Shown here: positions 8,885-49,367 of the stretch, piece by piece
Layout: each line of letters begins with the position of its first letter
How positions within the stretch are numbered: the first letter of the stretch is position 1
Assembly (NCBI GenBank): GCA_016209345.1
Contig: JACQWH010000029.1
Coordinates: 1 to 57,291, forward strand
DNA from: Candidatus Uhrbacteria bacterium
GTDB lineage: Bacteria; Patescibacteriota; Patescibacteriia; JACQRZ01
Direction of reading: 5' to 3'
Length of the DNA stretch: 57,291 nt
Notes under the pieces: generated by a model
Databases searched by the model: none
What the model saw: only the letters and a program-made list of their open reading frames with translations
What the model was told of the DNA's origin: nothing
Made by a program: the position numbers and the translations under genes

Positions 8885-10003
8885 CTATTCGCGAAGCGCG
8901 AGCCCGATAGCGACGGAAAACTTCGGTCCTATTGTCTCCAACACCGGCTTGAGATCCGCGGGACACTGGATAAACGACCAGGGGTCGCCCACGAACACGC
9001 GAACATCAAGTGTCTGGGATAAAAACTCCGCTATGCCCGGCATGAGCGCGGTACCGCCGGTCAAAATAATCTTCTCGATAACGCCGGCGGCTTGGGCGGA
9101 GGGCGTAAGCGTATGACTTTTATACAGATCAATCGTGTAGCGGATTTCATGGACGACCGGCTCGAGCGCGGTCTTGATAATGTCGGGAATGCCGCCGGTG
9201 CCGGTAGCAGCGCCGTCTGTGCCCGACCGAATGCCGATATCCCGCTTGAGTTGTTCTGATCGTTTATCCGCGATATGCAAACTGTTGGAAATTGCCCGGG
9301 TAATCCCCGCGCCTCCGTGTTCCAAACTTCGTCCGAAAAACGGCACCCCGTTTTGCATAATGATAATATCCGTGACAGCCGAGCCAATCTCCACAATCAT
9401 AATCTCCCCGGGCTGTGACCCCACGATAGAGCGCGAGAGCGCGAACATCTCCGTTTCAATGCTCACCAGATTCAGCCCGCACATCCCGAATATCTCGGTA
9501 TATTTCTGCACCGTCTCCTTGGCCGCGCCGGTAATGAGTATTTTAAGCGTATCATTATTATTCGGGGATGGCGATGCTTGTTTTTTCCCGAAAGGAATTT
9601 TGAGAAGCGACTGCTCTTGTTTCGGGTTGAGGATTTTATAGTCAAGGATAATCTCATCAAGCGGCAGGGGAATAATTTTTTTCGCTTCCCAATGCACTGC
9701 CGAGTCAAGCTCATCGCCGGAAAGCGGCGGAACGGTAATCAGCGAGGTGAACACCGCGTATGTGGGAAGCGCGGCGGTTGCGCGTTTTGTCGTACAGCGC
9801 GCTTTTTTGACCACCGACTGTATCGCTTGTGCCGTGAGTCCCGAATCCTCTTTGCCAATGGTATGCAAATCGCGCTGAAAATCCTCAACAAACCCATACG
9901 TCACCAATGCATGGCCGTTTTTCACTCGCGCAACCTCCAGGACCTTGATGCTCGACGTACCGATATCGACACCGAGAATATTTGTTTCTTTCTTTTCAAA
10001 CAT
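8885..10003 (-). CDS. pilM: Type IV pilus assembly protein PilM (actin-like ATPase)
   Basis: N-terminal GVDIGTSSIKVLEV phosphate-1 motif and overall FtsA/PilM-like sequence. The ATG at 10003 is preferred over the TTG at 10021. Confidence 0.85.
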   Translation of the reverse strand: MFEKKETNILGVDIGTSSIKVLEVARVKNGHALVTYGFVEDFQRDLHTIGKEDSGLTAQAIQSVVKKARCTTKRATAALPTYAVFTSLITVPPLSGDELDSAVHWEAKKIIPLPLDEIILDYKILNPKQEQSLLKIPFGKKQASPSPNNNDTLKILITGAAKETVQKYTEIFGMCGLNLVSIETEMFALSRSIVGSQPGEIMIVEIGSAVTDIIIMQNGVPFFGRSLEHGGAGITRAISNSLHIADKRSEQLKRDIGIRSGTDGAATGTGGIPDIIKTALEPVVHEIRYTIDLYKSHTLTPSAQAAGVIEKIILTGGTALMPGIAEFLSQTLDVRVFVGDPWSFIQCPADLKPVLETIGPKFSVAIGLALRE

Positions 10004-10037
10004 AAAAACCCTGGGGGACAATTACATATTCATGCGA

Positions 10038-16921: not shown

Positions 16922-18130
16922 ATGAATATATCTCGTTCAGTTCACTTTATTGTCATTCTTGCAATGGCCGTCACCGCCCTTTTTGCTATCCCCGCCTTTG
17001 CCGCGCCACCTGCCGGTACCGGCAGCGTGCGCCTCTCCGGTGATACATTTCCGGATTTTACATTTCAGATACCGATTGGAAATATCGCCGTCATTAACAG
17101 CGATGAAATCGTCAACGGAACGGCAATCGCCATCTATATCGGCATCATCTATCAGTGGGCGGTGGCATTTGCGGCCGTATTGGCTGTCCTTGCGTTCACC
17201 TATGCCGGCGTGCTATGGCTTATTGCCGGCGGGGATAGCGGCAAAGTGACGGAATCGAAAAAAATCATGGGCAACGCGATCATCGGACTCCTGCTCGCGC
17301 TGGGGTCGTATGTGTTTCTCAACGCGATCAATCCAAATCTCGTTCATTTCCAGCCGCTCAAAGTACCGGCTGTCAAAACCATTTCCCTGAATCTTACCCC
17401 CGCGTCAATCACTTCCGGCGGCATCACGGCCACCTACGATGTCGGACATTTTACCGCTCTTGGATTTCCGGCGCCAAACACGGAGGATGACCCCGGTAAA
17501 AAAATCCCGCTCAAGGGTGAAGTTCTCAACAGATGGCAGACATTGCAGCCGCTCGCCATGAAAGCGGCCCAGGCAACCGGCACCGACGTTGGCTTTATCG
17601 GCATGTGGCCCCTCTATGAGAATGGATTTGATACATTTATGGACAACTGCCAAGATACGGACACCAATCAAAATACGCCGTGCAGCGCATGGGGAGACGG
17701 TTGGCAGGTTGGCCTTGGCGTTCATCCGGGCAATATGCTTTGGGCATACGATGGCGGCTTTACCGCGATGTACGGCGATGCAAGCGATGCCACCGTACAG
17801 AAAGTAGGACAAAGCGTTCTTGATGCCGCGAGAGCCGCGGGCAAACCGATTACCATTGTTTCCAATCCATTTCCAGCCGCTTCTCTTGCAACAACGATTC
17901 AGAGCGCAAAAAACGGAGATCAACAGGCCCGACTCCTTATCGCGACTCTTACGAAAGACCCTGCGCTGGGACTGTACCTTGTTGGCGCGCATTTCGGCTC
18001 ACGCGATCTGGGTGGCCGTGGAGCAGATCTTGCGCGCGTGATGGATATGTGGGATAAAAAGGAGAAGGATGGCTACTACCACCCCCAGCGTATCAGTAAT
18101 TATATTAAAGCGGTCTATGACGCAAAATAA
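16922..18130 (+). CDS. T4SS-pilin-like (TrbC/VirB2-like) domain fused to a C-terminal soluble domain (possible glycosidase/VirB1-like)
   Basis: Signal peptide, then two hydrophobic helices with the GDSGKVTESKK loop (IYQWAVAFAAVLAVLAFTYAGVLWLIAGGDSGKV...LLLALGSYVFLNAINPNLV), typical of CPR/Gram-positive T4SS pilin-like proteins. The ~230-aa C-terminal domain is unassigned. Confidence 0.6.
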   Translation: MNISRSVHFIVILAMAVTALFAIPAFAAPPAGTGSVRLSGDTFPDFTFQIPIGNIAVINSDEIVNGTAIAIYIGIIYQWAVAFAAVLAVLAFTYAGVLWLIAGGDSGKVTESKKIMGNAIIGLLLALGSYVFLNAINPNLVHFQPLKVPAVKTISLNLTPASITSGGITATYDVGHFTALGFPAPNTEDDPGKKIPLKGEVLNRWQTLQPLAMKAAQATGTDVGFIGMWPLYENGFDTFMDNCQDTDTNQNTPCSAWGDGWQVGLGVHPGNMLWAYDGGFTAMYGDASDATVQKVGQSVLDAARAAGKPITIVSNPFPAASLATTIQSAKNGDQQARLLIATLTKDPALGLYLVGAHFGSRDLGGRGADLARVMDMWDKKEKDGYYHPQRISNYIKAVYDAK

Positions 18131-19145
18131 AAACAAAACGGCAATAAAAAAATGCGTTCTCGCTTTTTTTGTATCGGCGGTTTTGGCTGGCGTTCTTTTT
18201 TCATCTTCGGTCAATGCCGCCGACAACATCACCGTCACGCTTCAGATCCCGATTATCGGAGAAACGAACGTTCCCGTATGCCAGACGACGATCGGACCGG
18301 GTGGAAATGAAATTCTTGAATGCACCGGCATTGCCCGATATATCGGTATTGTATATCAGTGGGCGGTCGCGTTTGCGGCCGTTTTGGCTGTCCTTGCGTT
18401 CACCTATGCCGGCGTGCTATGGCTTATTGCCGGCGGGGATAGCGGCAAGGTGACGGAATCGAAAAAGGTTATGGGCAACGCAATCATCGGCCTCCTTCTT
18501 GCGCTGGGGTCCTACGTGCTTCTCAATGCAATAAACCCGAACCTTGTCGGGTTTGACGTCCTTCGACTTCCGGGAATCGCAAAAATTGAGCTTGATCTTA
18601 AACAGGTCGAGGACCACGGAGAGGAAACCGGCGATACCGGAGGTGTCGGGGGAATAGAAATAGCCGGCGATGGCAACCTTGATCGCCTCGCCGGATTGGT
18701 GCGCGATAACAAGCAGTTTGGCCTTGAACCAAGCCACTGTCTTGGCTGGGTCCGAAGAGCGCTTGTCCACATCTACGGTGAAGCAAAGTTCGCCGGATCG
18801 CCGCTGATAGGATCGGGCGCGTATCCGGGCCTCGTTGCGAAAAAATTTCTGGATGCAAGCAAGTTCACCGTCGGACTCCAGGGCGTTAAAAATGGTGATG
18901 TTGTTTTTATGCAGACGCCAGGTTCGCATCTTATCGCCATCGGTCGTGATACGGATTTACCGGGATATTCTGTCACCCATATCGGCATTTACTATAATGG
19001 TTCTGTGTATCACCAATTCGGAAAAGCCCTGCGCATAAGCAAAGTCCAAAAAACCCCCTCCGTGGCAAATGAAGACAATGTATTTACTGAGTCGGAAGGC
19101 GCGAAAAAGCTAAAGGTCATCGGCTACGGAAGCATGGGGCTTTAA
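18117..19145 (+). CDS. T4SS-pilin-like domain fused to a CHAP/NlpC-P60-like peptidase domain
   Basis: Same pilin-like module as the upstream gene. The C-terminal domain has a candidate Cys (PSHCLGWV) and His (VTHIGIYYNG) arrangement. The start was moved to MTQNKNK with a signal peptide. Confidence 0.6.
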   Translation: MTQNKNKTAIKKCVLAFFVSAVLAGVLFSSSVNAADNITVTLQIPIIGETNVPVCQTTIGPGGNEILECTGIARYIGIVYQWAVAFAAVLAVLAFTYAGVLWLIAGGDSGKVTESKKVMGNAIIGLLLALGSYVLLNAINPNLVGFDVLRLPGIAKIELDLKQVEDHGEETGDTGGVGGIEIAGDGNLDRLAGLVRDNKQFGLEPSHCLGWVRRALVHIYGEAKFAGSPLIGSGAYPGLVAKKFLDASKFTVGLQGVKNGDVVFMQTPGSHLIAIGRDTDLPGYSVTHIGIYYNGSVYHQFGKALRISKVQKTPSVANEDNVFTESEGAKKLKVIGYGSMGL

Positions 19146-19253: not shown

Positions 19254-19931
19254 TCACATGCCGAGTTGATGGCTTCGAACGGCCTCGGTGATTGTCTTTT
19301 TGATTTTTTTCCACGTCACCGCTCTATCAAAAAGTTTTACTCTGTCAATATCGTCATCTTCCTCCGCGTCATTAAAATAGAGTAGCCCCCGAAGAAAAAA
19401 GAAGTGGTTATACATCGGATATTTTTCTAATCCGAAGCGGATCATCTCATCCAGTGAAAAAATGTGTAATAAATAATATATATCAACAAAATCTCGATGA
19501 CGACCACGTTGCGCTATTGCGATGAGCTTCATTGCCGCAATATCCTGCAACGATGCAACCAATACCCCCTGCATAGGTATTGGCGATGCAACAAGCGGAT
19601 ATTCATAATAGAAACAGCTCAAGTGAATATCCGGTTTTGCCAAAAGATCAAAATTATCCTTTATGTCACGCGTTATCTCAATCTGCCAACGTTCTGCCAT
19701 GTACGAATAAAAGAGTTTGCTCAATGTTCCTTTAGCAAAGTGGCGTTGCCGATAAAAATCAAAATCTACTGACGTCCGATGGCCAATCTGTAGTGCGAGC
19801 GCAGTCCCTCCGGCAAGATACATGCCCGTCTTTTTCGTCCACGTAAGCTGTGAAAAAAAACGAGCCCGTGCCGGTGAAAGGACACTGTCAATATAACATG
19901 TTTTCTGTTGTTTTCTGATCATCGTCTTCAT
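19254..19931 (-). CDS. Nucleotidyltransferase AbiEii/AbiGii-family toxin-like protein
   Basis: Has the N-terminal motif LAGGTALALQIGHRTSVDFDFY characteristic of the AbiEii family. 225 aa and AT-rich. Confidence 0.6.
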   Translation of the reverse strand: MKTMIRKQQKTCYIDSVLSPARARFFSQLTWTKKTGMYLAGGTALALQIGHRTSVDFDFYRQRHFAKGTLSKLFYSYMAERWQIEITRDIKDNFDLLAKPDIHLSCFYYEYPLVASPIPMQGVLVASLQDIAAMKLIAIAQRGRHRDFVDIYYLLHIFSLDEMIRFGLEKYPMYNHFFFLRGLLYFNDAEEDDDIDRVKLFDRAVTWKKIKKTITEAVRSHQLGM

Positions 19932-31323: not shown

Positions 31324-31454
31324 GACAATGGCCGGGCGACGAGTTCAGCGCATTTTTGGGACGAAATTTGCTGGAAATGAGCCGGAAGAAACTCACACGT
31401 GATATTTTTCACCACTCTCATTATATTCATCGGAACCCATCACCATCTCTTCAC

Positions 31455-31526
31455 TGCACCCGGTAGGAATCGAACCTGCATTGCGGGATCCGCAATCCCG
31501 TGTCCTATCCGTTGAACGACGGGTGC
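31455..31526 (-). tRNA. tRNA-Arg (anticodon GCG)
   Basis: Manual cloverleaf: acceptor GCACCCG/CGGGTGC, anticodon stem CGGGA/TCCCG, loop TTGCGGA, and a T-arm GCAGG-TTCGATT-CCTAC with one mismatch. 72 nt, with no encoded CCA. Confidence 0.9.
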
Positions 31527-31583
31527 AAAAAAGAACTGTCATGTGCTCCTGCCCATGAAATCAAATGAATCTGCCAAAAGCGC

Positions 31584-32071: not shown

Positions 32072-32144
32072 TGACTGGAAAACGATACAATGTTCGATCG
32101 GAAAAGGATATATCCACAGCGTCGTTCTCTATAAAAAATAGATG

Positions 32145-32153
32145 TGCTATAAT
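32145..32153 (+). promoter_or_regulatory. Extended -10 box TGCTATAAT, 6 nt upstream of the ATG at 32160
   Basis: TGTGCTATAAT-GGAGAC-ATG. The ORF-track start at 32142 would lie inside this box. Confidence 0.45.
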
Positions 32154-32159
32154 GGAGAC

Positions 32160-33164
32160 ATGGTAGAACTGCTTATGGAAAAACGCATCCTATTTAAAAA
32201 GGGGGAGCAAAGGGAACTGCTCGACCAAATACTCGACCACCTTTCTGTTAAAGACATGGCATTGGCTTGCCGTTGTTCCGAAAGAACAATACGAGATTGG
32301 CATCGTGAAAAATTTTCTATTGATTTTGATTCATTACGAAAACTGTGCGATACAACCGGTGTCACATTTCCCGAAGAAGGTGTTGAAATTAAAAATCGCT
32401 ATTGGTACACATCTATTGGAGCACAACTCGGCGGAATAGCAGCGATGCAAAAATATGGGCGCGTAGGCGGAGATCCAAATCATCGTAAGAAAAAATGGCG
32501 CGAATGGTGGGAGCGAGAGGGAAAATTTAGAAAGGACCTCATCACGAACAATCCTTTATCGATTCAACTTCCAAAACCGTCTCCGGCGTTAGCGGAGTTC
32601 GTTGGCATAGTGCTCGGCGATGGTGGCATAACAAAAAATCAGGTTACCATTACACTCCATAGATTTGATGATAAGAAATATGGAACATTTGTAGCGCGCC
32701 TTATTGCATCTCTATTTAAAGTACCTGTTGGTATTTATCAGGATATGAATGCTCTTGCTACAAGCTATGTTATATCTCGAGTTATACTCGTCAACTTTTG
32801 CGAAAAGCAACTCGGACTTCAAAGAGGAAATAAAATAAAACATCAGGTTGATATTCCTGAATGGATTAAAACAAACAAAAAATTTTCTGTCAGCTGTGTT
32901 CGTGGTCTTATAGATACCGACGGAAGCATATTTGCTCATCGGTATCGCGTAGGCAGGAAGGATTATTCTTACAAAAAACTACAGTTTGTTTCTCGATCAC
33001 AACCGCTAAGGCAATCCGTATTCCACATACTGCAAAATAGCGGGTTAACTGCACGCCTTGGCAGACAGTATGACATATGGATCGATAATCAAAAAGAATT
33101 AACGAAATATTTTAAAATTATAGGGACTCACAATCCGAAACATTTGAATAATTATTTAAAATAG
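32160..33164 (+). CDS. Free-standing LAGLIDADG-family homing-endonuclease-like protein
   Basis: Two LAGLIDADG-type motifs (FVGIVLGDGGI and VRGLIDTDGSI) plus an N-terminal HTH-like region. AT-rich. Confidence 0.7.
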   Translation: MVELLMEKRILFKKGEQRELLDQILDHLSVKDMALACRCSERTIRDWHREKFSIDFDSLRKLCDTTGVTFPEEGVEIKNRYWYTSIGAQLGGIAAMQKYGRVGGDPNHRKKKWREWWEREGKFRKDLITNNPLSIQLPKPSPALAEFVGIVLGDGGITKNQVTITLHRFDDKKYGTFVARLIASLFKVPVGIYQDMNALATSYVISRVILVNFCEKQLGLQRGNKIKHQVDIPEWIKTNKKFSVSCVRGLIDTDGSIFAHRYRVGRKDYSYKKLQFVSRSQPLRQSVFHILQNSGLTARLGRQYDIWIDNQKELTKYFKIIGTHNPKHLNNYLK

Positions 33165-33185: not shown

Positions 33186-33276
33186 GGAGAGGTGAGTGAG
33201 TGGCTGAAACTAGCAGGTTGCTAACCTGCCATACGAGTTTTTTCTCGTATCGAGGGTTCGAATCCCTCCCTCTCCG
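33186..33276 (+). tRNA. tRNA-Ser (anticodon GCT)
   Basis: Acceptor GGAGAGG/CCTCTCC, anticodon arm GCAGG-TTGCTAA-CCTGC, long variable arm (CATACGAGTTTTTTCTCGTATC), and T-arm GAGGG-TTCGAAT-CCCTC. Confidence 0.9.
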
Positions 33277-37415: not shown

Positions 37416-37450
37416 TTAGGGGTTAGGGGTTAGGGGTTAGGGGTTAGGGG
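37416..37450. repeat. (TTAGGGG)x5 tandem heptamer
   Basis: Five perfect units. The sense strand (CCCCTAA)n supplies the last codons and the stop of the VirB4-like gene (..QTPNP-stop). Confidence 0.9.
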
Positions 37451-40400
37451 TCTGCCTCTTCTCATCTTCAAACTCCTTCTTTGCCGCCTCTATTTCCAGG
37501 AGTTGGCGCGGATCGGTGGTGATAAGCTGGTCTTCGGAATACGATGCAACCACCTTGATGGCAACATGTTTTGACCCGGCAAAGAAAATCCCTTCGCCCG
37601 GCCCTCCTTCTAATAATAGATACTTCTCACCCTCTGTCAATAAGAAGGTCTTTTGTACCGCATCGATCGCTGCCGATGATTGTTTGAGCAGAAGTTGAAT
37701 GGCCGAATTTGTCAGGATGGCGCGGCCGTATTGCGAGTTGAGAAAATCATTAACGTCCTGCGTAATGGTCGTCACTCCCAGATAATATTTGCGGCACCGC
37801 TTGGCAAGCGCAAAAATAAATCTGGCTGAGTCCTCATGCTGCATGAGCCACCACGCCTCGTCGATGACCAAAATCCTGCGCTTGATTTGAGATCGCACGA
37901 CATTCCAGATGTAGTTGATGATGGTGTAGATTGCGATAGGGCGCAGCTCGTCTTCCAAGTCGCGCACGGAGAACACGACAAGCTGGTTTTTTGTCTCGAC
38001 ATTCGTCGGCTTATTGAGCAGCCCCGCAAACGTCCCTTCGGTATATTTTTTCAGCTTTCCGGAAAGTCCCGCGCCGCCCTCCATGCCATCGAGCACATCC
38101 TGCAAATCGGTCAGTGTTGGGGGCTCAACGCCGGCGGACAGATCGGTTTGCGGCGTAATGTCTTTCTTCGCGTAGGCCTCCAGGAGCGCGCGATCAATAG
38201 TCGAATCCTCTTCTTGAGAAAACGCTCCCAGCATCAGCCGCATCAGCCCCTTGAGCGTAATGACCGCACTGCGAATAATGTCGGCGGTCGATACTTGCTC
38301 GCCAACCGGCCGCGGCAGATCAAACGGATTGATGCGACTTGTCGAGGAAAGAGATATGTTGACATAGGTACCCCCCACCGCATCGCAAAGATGCTTATAT
38401 TCGCGCTCCGGGTCTATCACCATAATCTCGGTTCCCATCATCATCGAGCGTAAAATTTCCAATTTTATGGCAAACGAGTTGTGTACAAAAAGTCCGCCGT
38501 GTCCTGCAAGAAACACTTCATTGTCGACGGTAAGATCGTACACGTACCGATCGGTATTTTTTATTCTTTTTATTGACGCTATTGGATCCCATATCAGATC
38601 GGCATCTGCAAGATTCTTCAGCTTTGCAATGAGCGCCTTCACGCGAGGAAGGCGAGACGCAATGCGCTGGTATTCGGATAATACATGGTGCGCAGCACTG
38701 CGCAACCGGCCGTATCGCATGTCGCCCCTCTCGCAAAGCCCCGTACGAAGAGAGCGATCGAAATCCTTCATCGAAAGGTTAAGCTGTCGAAATCCATAAT
38801 GAACAGCGTGCTTTACTTGTTCAAAATCTATGCTGTTGTACGAACTATATGACCACGCCCTCAATACATTTGTCGCGTACGGTGATACCCTCTGCTGCTT
38901 TATGTTGTTCCAGGTATGCCCCATCTCTTTCCAAAGAATGCCGTTTGTATTCTTATCGCAAACCCCCATGCCGATAACGGATGACATGTGGGGAAGCGCG
39001 GCTAACACCTCAAGCTCGTCTCTCAATACCTCAAAACGCCGCACCGCCTCATTCATCTGATCAATGACGGCATGGAGCTTCTCGCGCGATGGCTGATACG
39101 ACCCGTTTTTCAGCTCAATACAGTCCTGCATGCCGCGCAGATGAGATGGCAAAAGTTCATAGAGCTCCTGAAAAACGGTTTGGACGGGAATGGTGTCACT
39201 ATTTGTGTTGCTCTTCAAACCGAGAAGCCGCTTCAGCTTTGTATTCTTGCGTTGTGTGACAAATCCTATCGACTCAGCGTAGCGTGAAAGGTTTTCTTGG
39301 CCTGAAAGCGATAGCTGCCAATATGTTCTTCGCGTCTTCCTTGCGGTGTTGGTTGCATATTTATTTTTCTTCGACAAACGAACATGAATACCAAAACGAA
39401 GAAATACATATGCGAGATCGGAAACAAGCGCTTTTGATTTTGAAGTGGCGGTGACGGCATGGTTCTCGGCACACCCGTCTCCTTCAAAATAGGCCTTGAG
39501 AAATTCTGACAGTATGGACGATGACGCCCCAAACAATACTCCGGGAATTCGTTTGTCCGCTGATGTTTTTCCAATACCAAGCGCTTTAATATATTCCACG
39601 ATTACCCGACCGTGAATAACAAATGAGCCATCATCCTTGCGACGATAAAAAGAAAATCCTAGAGTGTTCAGACAATGGATAATATCGCTAACCACCGGTT
39701 TGTCCTCGTTTGAAATAAGAATATACCGTTCACGAATCGCGCCTTCACTCACAATATACCCCATCAATCGAGCTAATTCTGCCGTGAGATGCATAATGGG
39801 CGGCAGTGATGTCCCCTTCAAGCTGGTTGTCTTTGAACACAACCGAACTTCGGAATAGACGGCATGCGGATCAATGCCAAGATACGCAAGTATTTTCGAG
39901 AAATACCCAAGCGGAATCAGGCGACCGGTCCTATAGTTGTACCGGTAGCGATCAAAACGAGGATCGATGATCGCCCCTGCAAGGCGCGCGTAGTTCCTGG
40001 CTAGTACATACTGCCCGCCATCTATGTAGATTCTGCTATTATTCTCCAGCACTGCATATATGTCTTGCGTCGTGGTCGGATGTTCCGACTCCGACAACTC
40101 TCGTGCGAGAGGAATTGATTCGCCCGCGGAAATATCGGCACTCTTGTCTGCAACGACGACTCCATTGCGCAACACGAGCATATTATGGTCGCCCGTCACA
40201 GTAATTTCGCGCCCGCTCTTCATGGTAAACACGAAGAGATCGTCCGGCGCTTCTTTCCGAGCGGCGATGCTCACCGGGCTCCATTCGCCTTTTAATTCTT
40301 TATTAAAAGAATAGACCTGAATACCCGGATCAACGACACCTTCAAGATCATCATCGATCTTCTCAAAAACATGCTTTCTGGCGAGCGCGTCGATGGCAGG

Positions 40401-41306
40401 ACCGATCTGAACGAGCTTAATAGCACCGTCGCTATCCTTCATTAAAACCGGGGAAGATGATACTATGGACTTTCCTGCGCCGCTCGTTGCGAACACGACC
40501 TCGTTCGCGTTTTGCATGCTGAACCGGTCAAAGAGAATCAAGCTGTTATTGTGGCGATTGATGCCGTACAAAATGCCGTTGTCAGACGTGAGATCCGAAG
40601 AAATGAACGGAAACGCGGCAGCGGCAGGAGAGGTGTTCATATTAAATCCTATTGCCACCTCGTCGTTGCATAATGGCAATGTTGAGTTGAACCCCTGTTC
40701 CGCCTGGTAATAAACCCGCTTGGTGAAAATAAGTTTCGACCCGAACAGCCCCTCAATGTCTTCGGTGAGTTTGTCCAGCTCCTCAAGCGAGTTTGCAAGC
40801 AGCGTCATGTACACGCCGACCGTGAAAAAGTGCTCAATGCCCTGCGTGAGATCGTCACGCAAGCGCTCCATGTCGCGCAATGCCGTTTCCGCCATCGGAT
40901 CGCGCGGCTTTCCCTTTTCTTGTCCCGATGATATTTCCGCTTCAACCCTTCCCACTTTATTCCGCAGTTGTTTGAGAACAAGGGGAGTGCCGAGCGGTGC
41001 GAAAAAAATCGAGATGTCAAACGAGGCGGCGTAATTAATGATTGGCGCAAACCACCCGACATTGATATATCGAGGATACCCGATGACAAACACGGTTCGC
41101 GCGTATTTCGCGCCGACGCGCACGTACGACGGCTGTACCTCGAATGACGCGGGGCTGATTAAATCTTTCACGGCAACAAGTCCGCGGCGGTAAGCAAGCT
41201 CCTCTGCGATTGTCTGCTTTTGCTCCTCTTCTTTTTTCTGCGCAAGAACTTTCTTCTCTTGGGTCGGAGCTTTTTTTACCGCTTTTGCAATGGGTCGAAA
41301 GGCCAT
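37437..41306 (-). CDS. virB4: VirB4/TrbE-like T4SS ATPase interrupted by an intein
   Basis: Walker A ATSGAGK|S is split by the insert. Walker B RRILVIDEAWWLM. Also a RKYYLGVTTITQD motif and a VirB4-type region upstream (TVFVIGYPRYINVGWF). Confidence 0.85.
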   Translation of the reverse strand: MAFRPIAKAVKKAPTQEKKVLAQKKEEEQKQTIAEELAYRRGLVAVKDLISPASFEVQPSYVRVGAKYARTVFVIGYPRYINVGWFAPIINYAASFDISIFFAPLGTPLVLKQLRNKVGRVEAEISSGQEKGKPRDPMAETALRDMERLRDDLTQGIEHFFTVGVYMTLLANSLEELDKLTEDIEGLFGSKLIFTKRVYYQAEQGFNSTLPLCNDEVAIGFNMNTSPAAAAFPFISSDLTSDNGILYGINRHNNSLILFDRFSMQNANEVVFATSGAGKSIVSSSPVLMKDSDGAIKLVQIGPAIDALARKHVFEKIDDDLEGVVDPGIQVYSFNKELKGEWSPVSIAARKEAPDDLFVFTMKSGREITVTGDHNMLVLRNGVVVADKSADISAGESIPLARELSESEHPTTTQDIYAVLENNSRIYIDGGQYVLARNYARLAGAIIDPRFDRYRYNYRTGRLIPLGYFSKILAYLGIDPHAVYSEVRLCSKTTSLKGTSLPPIMHLTAELARLMGYIVSEGAIRERYILISNEDKPVVSDIIHCLNTLGFSFYRRKDDGSFVIHGRVIVEYIKALGIGKTSADKRIPGVLFGASSSILSEFLKAYFEGDGCAENHAVTATSKSKALVSDLAYVFLRFGIHVRLSKKNKYATNTARKTRRTYWQLSLSGQENLSRYAESIGFVTQRKNTKLKRLLGLKSNTNSDTIPVQTVFQELYELLPSHLRGMQDCIELKNGSYQPSREKLHAVIDQMNEAVRRFEVLRDELEVLAALPHMSSVIGMGVCDKNTNGILWKEMGHTWNNIKQQRVSPYATNVLRAWSYSSYNSIDFEQVKHAVHYGFRQLNLSMKDFDRSLRTGLCERGDMRYGRLRSAAHHVLSEYQRIASRLPRVKALIAKLKNLADADLIWDPIASIKRIKNTDRYVYDLTVDNEVFLAGHGGLFVHNSFAIKLEILRSMMMGTEIMVIDPEREYKHLCDAVGGTYVNISLSSTSRINPFDLPRPVGEQVSTADIIRSAVITLKGLMRLMLGAFSQEEDSTIDRALLEAYAKKDITPQTDLSAGVEPPTLTDLQDVLDGMEGGAGLSGKLKKYTEGTFAGLLNKPTNVETKNQLVVFSVRDLEDELRPIAIYTIINYIWNVVRSQIKRRILVIDEAWWLMQHEDSARFIFALAKRCRKYYLGVTTITQDVNDFLNSQYGRAILTNSAIQLLLKQSSAAIDAVQKTFLLTEGEKYLLLEGGPGEGIFFAGSKHVAIKVVASYSEDQLITTDPRQLLEIEAAKKEFEDEKRQTPNP
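38478..40469 (-). mobile_element. 664-aa intein with LAGLIDADG homing endonuclease domain in the VirB4 P-loop
   Basis: Begins with Ser (SIVSSSPVLMKD...). Block B TVTGDHNML. LAGLIDADG motifs LMGYIVSEGAI and FLKAYFEGDGCA. Ends ...VFLAGHGGLFVHN, followed by a +1 Ser. Removal restores GAGKSFAIKL. Confidence 0.8.
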
Positions 41307-41393: not shown

Positions 41394-42113
41394 CTAGGAT
41401 AGGGGTACTTCTTCGTCTCCTTCTACCTGAAGATCACTCAGGGGCGCCATACGCTGATTGGATGATGTTTCAGGGTTATAGGTAGTATAGTAAAGTTCTA
41501 TGAGGGACTGCGTATCAAGGCGGACGGTGTTGAGCCCCATGCCGACAAGACCGCCGGCAACGTTGCCGATGCGCTGGTCGAGCATATGCTTACGTTTAAG
41601 AAATTGTTCGTTTTTCAAACGCAGCTCGCCTGCGGCAAAAAAGACCTCATAAAGTTGTTTGAAAAATCCTCGCTTCATATCCGTAGCCGGATCGTATGGA
41701 ATCACGGCATAAAACTTTTTATCCATAATATCACCAAGCTGAACAAGTTCGGCGACGAATTGCCGATAGTCGGCCATCTGCATTTTAAGCAGATCGTTTG
41801 TCTGCTGCGCTTCGAGTTGCTCAAGACGCTTAATATATGTTGTGATGTCGTACTTGCGCGACTGGACCAGCACCTGGAGTGGGTAGTCGATGGTGTTGAG
41901 AAACTGCATATAGGACTGGATCGTCGCGTTCTGTTCGTCTTCCGACTTCAGAAAAAAATTGATGGAAGACACCAGCAGCACGCCGCGCAGGGTGCCGTCT
42001 TTGAGAATGACGGTATCGTTTTTTATCTCGGCAATTTCAAGATGTTTCTGCGTTGATGGCGTACCGCGATTCGCTTTCGGATTGGGCTCTGTTGTTTGTT
42101 TTTTCTTGGGCAT
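41394..42113 (-). CDS. Protein resembling the N-terminal domain of Gram-positive-type VirB4 (possible split-off VirB4 N-domain)
   Basis: HLEIAEIKNDTVILKDGTLRGVLLVSSINFFLKSEDEQNATIQSYMQFLNTIDYPLQVLVQSRK resembles the first domain of PrgJ/TcpF-type VirB4 proteins (from memory). 239 aa plus 625 aa of spliced VirB4 gives a typical VirB4 length. Confidence 0.5.
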   Translation of the reverse strand: MPKKKQTTEPNPKANRGTPSTQKHLEIAEIKNDTVILKDGTLRGVLLVSSINFFLKSEDEQNATIQSYMQFLNTIDYPLQVLVQSRKYDITTYIKRLEQLEAQQTNDLLKMQMADYRQFVAELVQLGDIMDKKFYAVIPYDPATDMKRGFFKQLYEVFFAAGELRLKNEQFLKRKHMLDQRIGNVAGGLVGMGLNTVRLDTQSLIELYYTTYNPETSSNQRMAPLSDLQVEGDEEVPLS

Positions 42114-42117
42114 AGAT

Positions 42118-42158
42118 CAGGTGTCAGGTTGCAGGTGTCAGGTTGCAGGTGTCAGGTT
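42118..42158. repeat. (CAGGTGTCAGGTTG) x ~2.9 tandem 14-mer
   Basis: Direct tandem copies. The sense strand encodes the C-terminal KPDTCNLTPAT-stop of the four-helix-bundle gene. Confidence 0.85.
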
Positions 42159-42516
42159 TATTACCGAGTTTTGTTATGAGGGTATTCAAAATTTTCATAA
42201 CCTCTATGAGTATTGTGTCAACATCATTATACTGGAGGTTCACACCAAAAGGCAATTTCTTTACGACGGCTATCTGTGTTTGCAGTTCAGCGCCCGATCC
42301 ATATGAAATATAAAGAAAGTGCCTATAATCCTTCCGCGTACCCCTCATACTTCCCTCAGCTATGTTTGACGGAATAGAAACTGCCGCTCGTTTCATTTGA
42401 GATGCTAGTCCGAAAACCTCTTCCCGGGGAAAATGACTCGTAAGTTCGTAGATTGCCAGAACCAGCTCAATACCCTTCTTCCATACTATCAAATCCTGAA
42501 ATGACTGTACTTTCAT
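42124..42516 (-). CDS. Four-helix-bundle protein (23S rRNA intervening-sequence protein family), copy 1
   Basis: FQDLIVWKKGIELVLAIYELTSHFPREEVFGLASQMKRAAVSIPSNIAEG...GSGAELQTQ matches the signature of this family. Confidence 0.8.
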   Translation of the reverse strand: MKVQSFQDLIVWKKGIELVLAIYELTSHFPREEVFGLASQMKRAAVSIPSNIAEGSMRGTRKDYRHFLYISYGSGAELQTQIAVVKKLPFGVNLQYNDVDTILIEVMKILNTLITKLGNKPDTCNLTPAT

Positions 42517-42529
42517 AAATTAATTTTTC

Positions 42530-42655
42530 TGATCACTGAAACCTGATCACTGAAACCTGATCACTGAAACCTGATCACTGAAACCTGATCACTGAAACCT
42601 GATCACTGAAACCTGATCACTGAAACCTGATCACTGAAACCTGATCACTGAAACC
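42530..42655. repeat. (TGATCACTGAAACC)x9 perfect tandem 14-mer
   Basis: 126 nt made of nine identical units. Each unit contains the palindrome TGATCA (with GATC) and TGA triplets on both strands. Confidence 0.95.
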
Positions 42656-43110
42656 TAAAACAACTCCGTCTCCTTCTCCTTTGCTTCACCCATATATGCC
42701 CCTCCGGTATCGACAATAAGCGCGAGATCGGCGAGCCGATGCCCGCTCACGCGCGGCGGTAAGGGCGGCGGGGTTTCCTTCAAGGCCTTTTCCTCCTTCG
42801 TCTCTTTTGCCGTGTGAATGACGCGGCGCACATCCTTTCTCCATACGCGCAGTGTCGGCCGGCTTGCCGTGCGCAGCGTATTGAGGAGAAAAAAATGGAA
42901 GGGCTGTCCGTTGATCCGCACAAACCCAAGCACGCCCGCGCATCCCCCGACAAGAATGGCGACAAAAATGAAGGCGGTCAGGTCTGTTGTTTTGTACGCA
43001 ACGAACAACAGCGCGCAGGCAACGAGGATGATCACAAACTGCCGAACGGTAATCGGCCCGAGTATGCGGTCTTCATTTTCAATAAATTGCGGAACGGTTA
43101 TTTGGTCCAT
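42655..43110 (-). CDS. PrgI-family (VirB3-like) T4SS membrane protein
   Basis: The start was moved to MDQITVPQFIENEDRILGPITVRQF, followed by two TM helices, the pattern typical of PrgI-family proteins. Confidence 0.65.
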   Translation of the reverse strand: MDQITVPQFIENEDRILGPITVRQFVIILVACALLFVAYKTTDLTAFIFVAILVGGCAGVLGFVRINGQPFHFFLLNTLRTASRPTLRVWRKDVRRVIHTAKETKEEKALKETPPPLPPRVSGHRLADLALIVDTGGAYMGEAKEKETELF

Positions 43111-43135
43111 GTCAACAAGAATTAAGAAACAAGAA

Positions 43136-43531
43136 TTAAGAATTACGAACAATCGATTTTGTGCCCTTAATAAGCCCGTTTGTTATTTTACTTACTGTTA
43201 TAGTATGCTGTGCGAGCGCTTGAAATATCTCCTTTTCAATATATCCGATATCACGCGCAATGAGTAACTGATTCTAAACTTCTGTAAGTGATCCGAGTGC
43301 TATCGAGTAGAACTGTGCCTTCTCCTTATATGACCCCCTGCCAAAACCCTCAGCAATGTTTGATGTTAATGAAACGGCAGCCCTACGAAGTTGATTTGTT
43401 AACCCAAACTGTTCTTCCTTTGGAAAGGATTGGGTTATCTTGTATATTTTCAGAACAAGGGTGTGGCCTTCTTGCCATGCTTTCAAATCTGTAAATGACC
43501 GGATCGTATGCTTGCTTAATTCTTGATTCAT
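43136..43531 (-). pseudogene. Four-helix-bundle protein, copy 2, with one in-frame TAG
   Basis: An 85-aa ORF, then TAG (43274..43276), then 45 more in-frame codons (NQLLIARDIGYIEKE...IVRNS-stop). The TAG aligns with Gln (CAG) of copy 1 (GAELQTQ against LTEV*NQ). Confidence 0.7.
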
Positions 43532-46058: not shown

Positions 46059-49000
46059 TTAACTGCCAAGAGATCTCTGCGCAACATCTTGAATGTCAGT
46101 ACTTGCCGTGCCAAACGTTCCTGCCCTCGCACGATCCAGTACTTCCTGGGTAAATGCCGTAATATTCGAAGATGCCCTTCCCTTATTAATATAGTTCTCA
46201 GCGCCACCACGTACAAGCCGTGAAAATGCACCAAGATTAAGTCGGGGAACTCTTAGCTGGACTTGACTTGTACGATTTGTGAGTGTTTCCCGAGTCATAC
46301 CCGCCAATACGCTCGAGTTCGCTGAGTCGGTCAGAATGCCTTCTATGGCAAGCCCGTGGGTAGCAGGATTGAATGCACCGGGAATCGCACGGCCATTATT
46401 ATCCATTGCAAATAGTGCGTTAACGGCTCCATCCCCCGCAGCGCCAGAAAATTGACGTAAATCACGCGCAAAAACTGCATTGAAATCAACTCCTCCGCTC
46501 GCATTTCTCGTAACTGCAGTTCCGGCGGCTAATTGAGCTTCGAGACGAGTCCTGTACACGTCAAGCATACGATTGCGTACATTCGCCGAAACCTTTCTAG
46601 TATAATCACCAAGCTTGTCAACTGTTGGGTCAGCTAGATTATCAATAAAATCATTGTTCACGTCGGTTTCTCGAATTTGGGCTGGCGCCAGCTCTTCTGT
46701 GCGCAATAATTCCTGCCACTGTGCGTTATTCAGCCGTGAAAGCGTCTCACGGCGCACGTCGGCATCGGCATCTTTCAAAAAAGGGCCCATCTTATTGACA
46801 TCGGGGTGCATCAAATTTGCAGGAGAAAAATTCGGCGCCGCATTTGCTCCGGTAATATCAGCAATTTTAATATCTTTTGCGGTAACTTGTCCTGTTTTAA
46901 ATAACTGCTGCCACTGTTCATCGGTCAATGCTCGCATCATGCGAGTCCGAACATCTGCGGTCACTTTCTTAAGATATTCGCCGAGCCGATCAACTGTTGG
47001 ATCTGCAAGGGCTCCTATAAGCGCTTGAGCCTGGGCGTTGTCATTCGGATTTCCCGGGACCGTAATATCTGCCATTTTAATATCCTCCGGTTTCCACTTT
47101 CCCGAGCGAAATGATTCAATTCGTTGATCGTGTGTCATGGGGCGCAAGGCGTCTTGCGGGCGTTTAGTTTTGATAAGCCGATCAAACGACTCTACGGTCC
47201 CTGACATAGCATTATGCCCCTGAACCATGCGTCGTATTTCGTCCGCCGGACGATCGCGCAATCCATCTTCTTCTATCAATGATTTTAATAGCCCCATTCT
47301 TTCTTCATCGGTATCGGCATGTCCCGGTATTACTCCTGTATACATTTCCCATTTTTCTTCATTTGATTTGCCCGCATGTTTCTTTGCAATTGCGTCAACG
47401 GCATTTGCCTGTGCTTCATTTGCATCAACTTTCTGTACCTCCCCCCAGCGCCCCAACCTGCTTAATTGTGATGGTCCAACAACCGCGGCAGCCATCAATC
47501 CGCCCGGAAGTGCACCAGCGGCAGCTCCGCCCAAACCAGCAACACCCGACCCCGCCCAACCAAGAGCAGCAGTACGAACCGATGCACCAAAAAATCCCGC
47601 AAACCCTCTCCGCAGCGTTGCTAAAAGCCCTCGAAACTCTGCCGCTTGCACAAGATTATCATGGTGATCGGCAGAAGCATTATGCTGTTCAATGATTTGA
47701 TTATTTTGATCGATTCGTGTTTGTAGGCGCGTTGCCTCATTTTCATGAGTTGTCGCAAGTGGAATGTTGCCTTGACCACGTGCCTCCTGCGCAAGTCGAA
47801 TATGCTCATCGCGTTCACGCTCATCAGCTTGAACCGTATTCTGTCGTTGTACGACGTCGGCGCGCAGCGTTCCCGCCGCCTGACGATTTGTATCTGCCTC
47901 AAGACTATTGTTCCTTTTCTGCTCCTCAATGCGGGTACGAAAATCCCTCCCAAACCCAAGCTCAAAATGTCCGCCGGTCAATGCGCCGGTACTCGTTCGA
48001 ATAACATTATCAAGTCCGTGTTCAACTTGCCTGTACCCTCGAGCAACCGCCTGACCCGCTTCTGTCTGCATGGCCCCGCGAATTAATTGCTGTGCACCCT
48101 TACGAGGTGCGGACGCGACAACACCAATCGCGCTTTGCACCCGATCGGTAAGCCGTTCAACGCGCTCCTTTCTTCTCTTCTCCCACCTACTCCCCAACCC
48201 TCCCAGTACTTCGCGACCGGTACGAAGCGGATTAAACGGTCCGCGTTTTCCTTGCATATAGTCCTTAAATCCGCTAATCGCCCCGCCGGCCATACTCCCG
48301 CCAACCGAGGAAAGCTGCTGGGCAGCCATCAGTGATCCTATCAACAGACCAATGCCAAGGATGTATCCGGCCATACCGCCAATGGTTGAAATACCGCTCT
48401 GTCCAACGTCTGCCAGCTCTCCGGCTAAAAACTTTCTATCCTCAAAATGAACGCCGAGCTCTGTAGCGATATAGATATCGTTTGAATCGTTGATACCATT
48501 TCCAGCAACTGCAACGATTGTAAAGGAAAGCCAGAGAAAAAATGCCATGACCGGCCCCACCAAAAGATAATTGATAAACTGATCCCACCATTTTGAAGCA
48601 TACCCCCTATCTTGGGGAAGCGACATAAGAAAAAATGCGGCGGGTGAAAGAATGATGAGAAACCACAACGCAATAATACGGATAACAAGAATTGCTACCA
48701 TGATGGCGATGACAATGAGTGCCAAACTGACAAAAATAAGCGCGAGAACCATCCCCATTAAAGCTGACTCGGCTTGCACCTGTTTCGCCTCTCCGGATCC
48801 GCTAAAAAGCACCATTGACAACAGCCGATTGAGTCCGATAAGCACGGCAAAATTACCGCCGCCGGCTTGTGAAAACGCCCCGACAAATGTCATCATTACT
48901 ATTTGGGCAAAGTCGATAAACAGTCCACAAATTGTCTTGGAAAAATTTACAAGAATTGCCGCGGCGAGAAATTTCGGCAATGTTTGAGAATAGCTGTATT

Positions 49001-49367
49001 GCTGCTGTTGTAAAATGGTGCCTAGTGCTATTGCCAGGAGCACCACGACAAAAAACATATTGACCACATCGCGAACCACCACCCATCCGGTCGTCACGGC
49101 TGTTGACGCAAGAAACTGGTTATACTGCGCTATGGCAAGAAGCAGGTACATCAGATTGACAACCAGTCCGCCGATGAGCTGGACGAGCAACGCGATGAAC
49201 CCACCCAAAACCATGCCAAACGCCCGCGCAGTAGCATCACCAACCCAAGAAAAAATCCCCGCACTGGCAGAAGTGCGAAATCCAAAAACGCCAACAATAA
49301 TAATGAGCACAACAATAACACTCGTCGTGCTGACAAGCCGCTTGTTCTGTAAAAATTTGTGCATCAC
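46059..49367 (-). CDS. VirB6/TrbL-like polytopic membrane protein with a long soluble C-terminal region
   Basis: The first ~400 aa carry many TM helices. The C-terminal ~650 aa are hydrophilic and hold three ~50-aa internal repeats (TVDRLGEYLKKVTADVRTRM.., DVNKMGPFLKDADADVRRET.., TVDKLGDYTRKVSANVRNRM..). Confidence 0.6.
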   Translation of the reverse strand: MMHKFLQNKRLVSTTSVIVVLIIIVGVFGFRTSASAGIFSWVGDATARAFGMVLGGFIALLVQLIGGLVVNLMYLLLAIAQYNQFLASTAVTTGWVVVRDVVNMFFVVVLLAIALGTILQQQQYSYSQTLPKFLAAAILVNFSKTICGLFIDFAQIVMMTFVGAFSQAGGGNFAVLIGLNRLLSMVLFSGSGEAKQVQAESALMGMVLALIFVSLALIVIAIMVAILVIRIIALWFLIILSPAAFFLMSLPQDRGYASKWWDQFINYLLVGPVMAFFLWLSFTIVAVAGNGINDSNDIYIATELGVHFEDRKFLAGELADVGQSGISTIGGMAGYILGIGLLIGSLMAAQQLSSVGGSMAGGAISGFKDYMQGKRGPFNPLRTGREVLGGLGSRWEKRRKERVERLTDRVQSAIGVVASAPRKGAQQLIRGAMQTEAGQAVARGYRQVEHGLDNVIRTSTGALTGGHFELGFGRDFRTRIEEQKRNNSLEADTNRQAAGTLRADVVQRQNTVQADERERDEHIRLAQEARGQGNIPLATTHENEATRLQTRIDQNNQIIEQHNASADHHDNLVQAAEFRGLLATLRRGFAGFFGASVRTAALGWAGSGVAGLGGAAAGALPGGLMAAAVVGPSQLSRLGRWGEVQKVDANEAQANAVDAIAKKHAGKSNEEKWEMYTGVIPGHADTDEERMGLLKSLIEEDGLRDRPADEIRRMVQGHNAMSGTVESFDRLIKTKRPQDALRPMTHDQRIESFRSGKWKPEDIKMADITVPGNPNDNAQAQALIGALADPTVDRLGEYLKKVTADVRTRMMRALTDEQWQQLFKTGQVTAKDIKIADITGANAAPNFSPANLMHPDVNKMGPFLKDADADVRRETLSRLNNAQWQELLRTEELAPAQIRETDVNNDFIDNLADPTVDKLGDYTRKVSANVRNRMLDVYRTRLEAQLAAGTAVTRNASGGVDFNAVFARDLRQFSGAAGDGAVNALFAMDNNGRAIPGAFNPATHGLAIEGILTDSANSSVLAGMTRETLTNRTSQVQLRVPRLNLGAFSRLVRGGAENYINKGRASSNITAFTQEVLDRARAGTFGTASTDIQDVAQRSLGS

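Follow-up and report, generated by a model that had tools for sequence, protein, structure and literature searches.

What interrupts the Walker A motif of a VirB4-like ATPase gene in a member of the Candidatus Uhrbacteria, and does the interruption have the makings of a splicing and homing element? The question is raised by a 57,291-nucleotide stretch of DNA (positions 1 to 57,291 of contig JACQWH010000029.1, assembly GCA_016209345.1), hereafter the window, in which a single open reading frame (ORF) encodes a 1289-amino-acid (aa) precursor of a predicted type IV secretion system (T4SS) ATPase. A first-pass annotation, made from the sequence alone, had proposed that the P-loop of this protein is occupied by a large LAGLIDADG intein. 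The analysis reported here supports that interpretation. The insert is a genuine, well-formed element, very probably a canonical (class-1) intein that harbours a nested LAGLIDADG homing endonuclease along with a large accessory domain (ACD), and it lies between the Lys and the Ser of the VirB4 Walker A sequence GAGK|S.

Insertion site and intein-free orthologs

The virB4-like gene occupies positions 37437-41306 on the minus strand, as do all of its parts described below, and the ORF, intein included, matches Pfam P-loop_TraG, AAA_10, Intein_splicing and LAGLIDADG_3. The precursor reads ..VFATSGAGK-SIVSSSPVLMKD...VFLAGHGGLFVHN-SFAIKLEIL.. across the insert. Its N-extein (aa 1-279, 40470-41306) ends with the Walker A GAGK (40470-40481) and aligns without gaps to intein-free orthologs up to that motif. 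The intein (aa 280-943, 38478-40469) extends over 664 aa from Ser1 to Asn664, as delimited by intein profiles, sequence matches in the PDB, an AlphaFold2 (AF2) model and Foldseek. The C-extein (aa 944-1289 plus stop, 37437-38477), assigned by ortholog alignment and Pfam P-loop_TraG, opens with the +1 Ser, which is the Walker A Ser (38475-38477), and carries the Walker B sequence RILVIDEAW (precursor aa 1144-1152, 37851-37877). Removal of the insert joins the K and S that it separates, restores GAGKS and leaves a protein of 625 aa. The coordinates and lengths of insert and spliced product given by the first-pass annotation agree exactly with ours. Spliced in silico, this 625-aa extein scored 349.9 bits (cut-off 325) with the NCBIfam model NF045971 for VirB4-like conjugal transfer ATPases of the CD1110 family, and matched Pfam P-loop_TraG, AAA_10 and DUF87. 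The reconstructed empty-site DNA is 5'-GCAACGAGCGGCGCAGGAAAG|TCGTTTGCCATAAAATTGGAA-3', from which the versions found at the intein-free alleles L001 and L004 differ at wobble positions.

A search of the spliced extein against 5.8 billion proteins returned at least 8000 candidates, the best 120 of which were inspected. All 120 were 520-676 aa in length and none carried the insert; the closest, P0001-P0004, are 94-95% identical to the spliced extein, and the named organisms among the matches listed were Candidatus Uhrbacteria, Buchananbacteria, Parcubacteria and Patescibacteria. Twelve out of 12 aligned orthologs (up to 95% identical) read GAGK|S(F/Y)A(I/V)KLE, with zero residues in the 664 columns of the insert, which fixes the junction exactly at GAGK|S and bears out the earlier placement of the insert in the Walker A motif of a VirB4-like ATPase. 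An assembly or frameshift artefact that fused unrelated sequence into virB4 is next to impossible, as nothing was found in its favour, the reading frame runs without a break, both junctions fit to the residue and the same architecture recurs in 80 independent species-level assemblies (see below); it is refuted by these loci and by the ortholog alignment.

Splicing domain and nested endonuclease

Both ends of the insert have the properties of a HINT splicing domain. Pfam Intein_splicing (PF14890) scored 56.6-59.4 bits (cut-off 35.8), TIGR01445 (intein N-terminal region) 34.2 bits (cut-off 24.5) and TIGR01443 (intein C-terminal region) 22.4 bits (cut-off 15.6), all above the curated cut-offs, and the strongest NCBIfam alignments were to the intein portions of the archaeal RpoA'', Tes, DnaB, PolII, RFC and aIF2 models. 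Among solved structures, sequence matches to PI-PkoII (E 3e-21), TFIIB mini-inteins and VMA inteins covered the N-HINT, endonuclease and C-HINT parts. Matches of such strength, like those of the profiles, lie well outside anything expected by chance. The N-terminal HINT part (intein 1-135, 40065-40469) is defined by TIGR01445 and by alignment to PI-PkoII 12-133 and TFIIB mini-intein 9-132, and includes Ser1 (40467-40469) and the block B sequence TGDH (intein 92-95, 40185-40196). It is followed by a variable helical linker to the endonuclease (intein 136-228, 39786-40064), recognised from the family alignment and the AF2 helices, which aligns in part to PI-PkoII from residue 213 onward and is missing or shortened in several relatives. 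The C-terminal HINT part (intein 623-664, 38478-38603), defined by TIGR01443 and alignment to the C-termini of PI-PkoII and the TFIIB mini-intein, contains block F, YVYDLTVDNEVFLAG (38502-38546), and block G, GLFVHN (38478-38495). All splicing residues are present, namely Ser1, T92-G-D-H95 within TVTGDHNML, H663-N664 and the +1 Ser, and S1, T92, D94, H95, H663 and N664 are invariant among 10 relatives; the Hint blocks named in the first-pass annotation (TVTGDHNML, and a C-terminal HN followed by Ser) were correctly read. Serine at both splice junctions has a precedent in the Psp-GBD Pol intein, and makes the splice-junction chemistry cysteine-independent.

These data bear on a conserved VirB4 insertion domain that does not splice, whether a permanent extra domain or a BIL/Hint domain that only cleaves. 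Such a domain is very improbable here. Hint-like domains without full splicing do exist in general, and nothing more specific could be found for this reading, whereas a retained insert would split Walker A and so abolish nucleotide binding, all four splicing nucleophile or assisting positions are present and conserved, and thousands of orthologs do without the insert. To our knowledge, BIL domains contain no nested homing endonuclease, usually lack a +1 nucleophile and reside in variable, non-conserved host proteins; the present element differs on all three points, as it contains a nested LAGLIDADG domain, has Ser at +1 and sits at a host site of high conservation. The matches to Hint profiles and the retention of Ser1...HN-Ser by family members likewise argue for an intein.

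The LAGLIDADG homing endonuclease domain (intein 229-420, 39210-39785) was assigned from PF14528 (LAGLIDADG_3; 69-72 bits over two stretches, cut-off 22.5) and Foldseek, which together indicate a duplicated alpha-beta-beta-alpha-beta-beta-alpha fold. Motif 1 is LMGYIVSEG (intein 235-243, 39741-39767) and motif 2 LKAYFEGDG (intein 324-332, 39474-39500), each with an acid at position 8 (E242 and D331), and the block D Lys306 lies within 39543-39560. Both motifs, noticed in the sequence at first pass, have kept their catalytic acids; E242, G243, K306, D331 and G332 are invariant among the 10 relatives. The AF2 model of the intein, built on 10 sequences, has a mean predicted local distance difference test score (pLDDT) of 86.2 and a predicted template modelling score (pTM) of 0.82. 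Its top Foldseek matches in the PDB were 2cw7 (E 1e-22), the TliVMA intein 7qss, PI-PfuI 1dq3 and PI-SceI, followed by mini-inteins and I-DmoI. The mini-inteins 5o9i, 4e2t and 6rpp matched with a root-mean-square deviation of about 2 Å over 120-130 columns, and the endonuclease part matched PI-PfuI, I-DmoI and I-Tsp061I, with TMt values of 0.62-0.67 for the last two.

The window also encodes a free-standing homing-endonuclease-like ORF of 340 aa (32142-33164, plus strand; GC 0.395, GC at third codon positions (GC3) 0.334), located between tRNA-Arg(gcg) (31454-31527, minus strand) and tRNA-Ser(gct) (33186-33276, plus strand). It has two LAGLIDADG motifs (LGDGGI and LIDTDGSI), with a PF14528 score of 21.1 bits, just below the cut-off of 22.5, and an N-terminal Cro/C1-type helix-turn-helix (HTH) with a PF13443 score of 20.4 bits (cut-off 22). 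Kinship of this ORF to the intein endonuclease was considered and rejected, none being detectable by BLASTP (E 1.6).

A large accessory domain

Between the end of the LAGLIDADG_3 match (about residue 402-420) and the HINT-C strands (625 onward) lies the region that the first-pass annotation had described as some 250 aa of extra sequence. The region exists, but its length had been overestimated: it measures about 200 aa (intein 421-622, 38604-39209), and a second variable helical stretch, the linker at intein 136-228, is present upstream of the endonuclease. It occupies the position of the ACDs known between the homing endonuclease and HINT-C in TliVMA, PhoVMA, PI-TkoII and PI-PfuI, which are structurally diverse, two of them HTH-like, and modulate DNA cleavage (Beyer et al. 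2022, PMC8966425). The domain begins with a conserved NTNxDxIP motif (NTNSDTIP, 39186-39209), includes an HTH-like stretch (39054-39128) and continues in the AF2 model as an all-helical bundle; modelled alone, it reached a pLDDT of 91.4 and a pTM of 0.84, with 13 helices. No significant fold relative was found in the PDB (best E 0.26, TM at most 0.22) or BFVD (best E 0.46), and Pfam searches with the window's own copy gave noise only.

A complete HMMER search with the ACD alone, covering 1.84 billion representative proteins, returned 13 clusters, none with a non-intein domain; the nine members long enough for a Pfam domain were all inteins. Where hosts are visible, they are TraG/VirB4-type or DUF87/HerA-type ATPases carrying the intein at a GxGK|S P-loop. 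In complete members, the stretch between NTN and YVYDL has a constant length of 221-228 aa. Several observations bear on the role of the domain. In P0129, a distant relative with a short version, located in a HerA/DUF87 ATPase, a genuine HTH_3 domain (28.8 bits, cut-off 23) stands at the ACD position, and the first 76 ACD columns align to this P0129 segment by hhalign with a probability of 84% (E 8e-6). HTH_3 matched weakly in 2 of 15 ACD modules, short Micrarchaeota forms keep just the HTH-like first 55-64 or so ACD columns, and the module is mildly basic (isoelectric point 9.15). The most fitting reading of the extra region is an ACD of unusual size built around an HTH-like core, in which a fold not described before fills an architectural slot that is already known: it starts with a degenerate HTH, and the remainder is an orphan helical fold.

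Proposed splicing and homing cycle

With its P-loop split, the 1289-aa precursor cannot bind ATP and its function requires splicing. In the proposed pathway, the standard four-step one of class-1 inteins, the HINT domain would perform an N-O acyl shift at Ser280 (Ser1), helped by the block B residues Thr92 and His95, and the resulting ester would be attacked by the hydroxyl of the +1 Ser944 in a transesterification. Cyclisation of Asn943, assisted by His942, would then free the intein, and an O-N shift would create the native K279-S944 bond, yielding a 625-aa VirB4 with an intact GAGKS and a free 664-aa intein. Through E242 and D331, the latter is predicted to cut an intein-less virB4 allele at the sequence coding for GAGK|S, after which recombinational repair would copy the intein into the break (homing). 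The HTH-started ACD, placed between endonuclease and HINT-C, would most likely add DNA contacts. The insertion point, the identities of the domains, the preserved catalytic residues, the fold and the sporadic distribution of the family are shown by the data; that the intein splices, that its nuclease is active at present and that the ACD binds DNA is inferred, for the splicing pathway from established intein chemistry and the residues present.

Family distribution and mobility

Searched alone against the protein database, the intein gave 14 matches, nine of which were 27-46% identical; eight of these nine were in Patescibacteria VirB4 proteins at the same site. Family members are mostly named "hypothetical protein" or "LAGLIDADG family homing endonuclease" in databases. 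A scan of GTDB by pattern and tblastn, using one genome per GTDB species, found 85 relatives, 80 loci of which were kept; the source genome of the window lies outside the collections searched. Most of these 80 loci cover intein residues 1-664, at 30-58% identity. They represent many lineages of Patescibacteria, along with archaea labelled as DPANN, and in about 70 of them the junctions, read by pattern, are GxGK|S...HN|S followed by Y.VKLE.LR. By these sequence comparisons, the window holds one representative of a little-described intein lineage whose members, at 80 GTDB species loci from Patescibacteria and DPANN, appear to share this P-loop site. The serine in first position, pointed out at first pass as standing there in place of Cys, is the norm in this lineage: it was found at all GTDB loci with a junction read except L013, where the N-terminal nucleophile is apparently, and unusually, Thr (GSGK|TIHGNEPV...).

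Some record titles call for caution. Members in metagenome-assembled genomes labelled as DPANN (Micrarchaeota, Altiarchaeota or 'archaeon') are L044, L045, L046, L059, L067, L079, L082 and P0142, their archaeal assignment being that of the titles only. Several 'binchicken' TPA assemblies (L008, and others in L006-L085) are entitled Gammaproteobacteria, Pseudomonadales or Saccharibacteria yet have a Patescibacteria-type VirB4, so that these titles look unreliable; the junction sequence of L008 is that of P0121, named Uhrbacteria by NCBI. As to hosts, the archaeal-labelled L044 passes the VirB4 CD1110 cut-off with 341 bits, and those of Micrarchaeota are ATPases of the VirB4/CedB/HerA superfamily, nearest to CedB but under its cut-off. 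Apart from L044, the archaeal-labelled hosts are CedB/HerA-like and share only about 20% identity with the C-extein of the window.

Members of the family vary in their parts and in their site. A near-full ACD was present in 69 of the 80 loci and both LAGLIDADG motifs in 64, while several members are shortened to 391-530 aa and the endonuclease is truncated in P0124, P0127, L084 and L080; such degenerate and mini versions are as expected from the cycle. In L055, L060 and L073 the intein occupies a second site five residues upstream, VVFGK|S[intein]HN|SGGGKSY; the GK|S used here is the other one within a GKSGGGKS loop, which suggests ectopic homing to a locally similar sequence. At the window's own site, the distribution is sporadic, as orthologs 94-95% identical lack the intein and synteny is conserved.

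How the lineage has spread was addressed by comparing inteins with their hosts. For 65 complete loci, identities of intein and C-extein were correlated (Spearman 0.77; Mantel r 0.68, p 0.001), the intein evolving faster than its host (about 45% identity where the host has about 75%). In comparisons with the archaeal CedB-like hosts, inteins hold 38-43% identity where exteins drop to about 20%. This pattern fits an old intein lineage that is mostly inherited within clades, often lost, and occasionally transferred across ATPase families and domains.

Several results weigh against the picture of an actively homing element with a DNA-binding ACD. The divergence of the intein largely tracks that of its host, with which vertical residence fits as well as mobility. 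The closest relative of the intein shares only about 46% identity with it, and no filled or empty allele of the same species was found in protein, GTDB or JGI metagenome searches; together, these leave no evidence of recent homing. The 29-nucleotide string of the N-junction had no match in JGI metagenomes, and the closest intein-free alleles are just 78-80% identical at the DNA level, so that no direct presence/absence polymorphism can be demonstrated. IMG/VR viral contigs yielded generic intein and LAGLIDADG matches only (20-30% identity) and PLSDB plasmids a single, unrelated Streptomyces LAGLIDADG gene, hence no evidence that the family travels on known viruses or plasmids. The GC3 of the intein (0.506) is below that of the exteins (0.62) but ordinary for window genes (0.518 +/- 0.075), and composition was set aside as a sign of foreign origin, being weak evidence only. 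The AF2 model has low confidence in the last 13 residues, and the DNA-binding role of the ACD is argued from the indirect hhalign link to an HTH, the isoelectric point and analogy.

Part of this evidence would be accounted for by an intein that is still able to splice but has lost its endonuclease activity, a resident, vertically inherited passenger kept only because its imprecise loss would destroy an essential P-loop. This reading is possible, if somewhat doubtful. The correlated divergence of intein and extein, the distance to the nearest relative, the lack of same-species polymorphism in our searches and the truncated endonucleases of the four relatives named above all speak for it, and PhoVMA is a published case of an inactive nested endonuclease (PMC8966425). 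It is opposed by E242, D331 and Lys306, which are intact and invariant in a 664-aa frame that is fully open, by the retention of both motifs in 64 of the 80 loci, and by the very close intein-free orthologs, which demand either a recent gain or many precise losses.

A bolder idea concerns the ACD, which combines a degenerate XRE-type HTH with an orphan helical bundle of fixed length and is found only in P-loop inteins of VirB4/CedB/HerA-type ATPases. Such a domain could act as a new DNA-targeting module by which this intein lineage recognises the DNA coding for GK|S in ATPases that share only some 20% identity. More speculatively still, the intein or its released HTH-bearing product might have been co-opted as a gate or regulator of the T4SS that is essential to these episymbionts. 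We give this idea a small chance of being right. If true, a DNA-targeting module would explain the jumps between CPR (candidate phyla radiation) bacteria and DPANN archaea, and that to the second GK|S site five residues upstream.

Host system and neighbouring genes

As judged from profile matches and gene content, the host protein is a VirB4-like ATPase of a chromosomal Patescibacteria (Uhrbacteria-like) T4SS, from a clade related to MPF-FATA. Directly upstream of virB4 is a TrsD/TraC-like gene (41394-42113, minus strand), whose syntenic counterpart in L001-L004 carries PF26593 TraC-like. Farther upstream on the same strand are a PrgI/VirB3-like gene (42655-43152; PF12666, 41 bits) and a gene for a large VirB6/TrbL-like membrane protein (46059-49367), which is syntenic in L001 and L004 and has a weak PF04610 match (18.6 bits, under the cut-off). 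The gene order around virB4 is conserved at the intein-free alleles L001-L004, and the cluster is surrounded by housekeeping genes (PheT, ClpB-like ATPase, RecG, Mur ligase and PilB-type ATPase). No relaxase was seen among the window ORFs scanned, which are part of the total, and no other intein among 31 ORFs scanned.

Inteins usually favour conserved sites in indispensable proteins. A host T4SS that is chromosomal, and essential to the epibiotic growth of the cultured relative Ca. Southlakia epibionticum (PMC12102498), fits this preference. The same study describes the T4SS of Patescibacteria as widespread, chromosomal, akin to the monoderm MPF-FATA class and usually without a relaxase, and reports an association of TrsD with VirB4 (PMC12102498); the chromosomal neighbourhood of TrsD, PrgI/VirB3 and VirB6-like genes in the window agrees with this description. 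Inteins go unmentioned there.

The importance of the host system gives some ground for a domesticated or conditional intein, in which gated splicing would be a post-translational switch of the T4SS or the released HTH-bearing intein would have a host function. The strikingly fixed length of the ACD (221-228 aa from NTN to YVYDL), its presence in 69 of the 80 loci and the general case for functional retention of P-loop inteins made by Novikova et al. (PMC4760082) can also be cited for it. We nevertheless regard domestication as distinctly unlikely, as most orthologs, even those 95% identical, work without the intein, Ser/Ser nucleophiles offer no redox handle, no regulatory feature was found in the element, and its distribution resembles that of a selfish element.

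Two side observations concern the surroundings of the host gene. Between the PrgI/VirB3 gene and the TrsD/TraC-like gene sits a gene for a 23S rRNA-intervening-sequence protein (42124-42516, minus strand), a four-helix bundle with a PF05635 score of 118.7 bits and a low GC3 of 0.42. Since PrgI directly abuts the TraC-like gene in the intein-free L001-L004, this gene is a second presence/absence insertion in the operon. Elsewhere in the window are two adjacent ORFs with weak T4SS-pilin (PF18895) matches, below the cut-off (16922-18130 and 18069-19145, both plus strand), the type IV pilus genes for PilM (8885-10021, minus strand) and a PilB-type T2SSE ATPase (5377-7110, minus strand), and a low-GC AbiEii toxin gene (19254-19931, minus strand).

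Implications

The finding does not overturn current understanding, but has consequences for annotation. The virB4 gene here, like its counterparts in no fewer than 80 further Patescibacteria and DPANN species, needs an annotation that names the intein; it is neither a pseudogene nor a fusion, nor a hypothetical protein of 1289 aa, and surveys of Patescibacteria T4SS that filter on length or domain order could miss or misjudge intein-bearing copies. The finding also puts a selfish homing element inside the motor of a system that is reported to be essential for epibiotic growth, and the sharing of one intein lineage by ultra-small archaea and ultra-small bacteria is a hint of gene flow between the two. 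It may have some value as a tool, as the junctions are cysteine-independent and the confidently predicted orphan-fold ACD could serve the study of meganuclease targeting.

Comparison with known inteins

The first-pass annotation had supposed that inteins at this site in a secretion ATPase are not commonly described. No paper pairing inteins with Patescibacteria VirB4 was found in the literature searched. Inteins in secretion ATPases are on record, however: the host table of Novikova et al. (2016, PMC4760082) lists inteins in VirB4 (COG3451; 5), archaeal VirB11 (21) and CpaF (5). The VirB4 inteins tabulated there have Firmicutes and Proteobacteria hosts and are likened to the window intein by host protein. 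Insertion into the Walker A loop of a P-loop NTPase is shared with the DnaB (site b), MCM (site a) and RFC-S (site a) inteins. Outside inteins, WhiA (PDB 3hyi; Foldseek E 5e-5) likewise combines a LAGLIDADG fold with a following HTH DNA-binding domain; it is a non-catalytic transcription factor without a HINT domain, and offers an analogy only.

Closer in architecture are the VMA-b inteins of Thermococcus litoralis and Pyrococcus horikoshii (7qss and 7qst; PMC8966425), which are also inserted in an ATPase P-loop and have the order HINT, endonuclease, ACD. The ACD of TliVMA is HTH-like and modulates DNA cleavage (PMC8966425), and this intein matches that of the window by Foldseek with an E of 7e-18. 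The VMA-b inteins differ in their small ACDs, compared with about 200 aa and no PDB or BFVD relative here, and in their hosts, which are V-ATPase A subunits of archaeal hyperthermophiles and not T4SS ATPases of Patescibacteria.

The best match both by sequence (E 3e-21, in three aligned segments) and by fold (E 1e-22) is PI-PkoII, or PI-TkoII, intein-2 of the Thermococcus kodakarensis DNA polymerase (PDB 2cw7). The two share the order HINT-N, linker, double-motif LAGLIDADG, accessory region and HINT-C, and the PI-PkoII motifs LLGYYVSEG and LEGYFIGDG align to LMGYIVSEG and LKAYFEGDG of the window. They differ in host protein and insertion site, overall identity is 16%, and PI-PkoII has about 11 residues where the window intein has its helical ACD of about 200 aa. 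P-loop insertion, Ser/Ser junctions, nested LAGLIDADG endonucleases and ACDs are all established, and the sole unfamiliar part of the element is its large, orphan-fold ACD.

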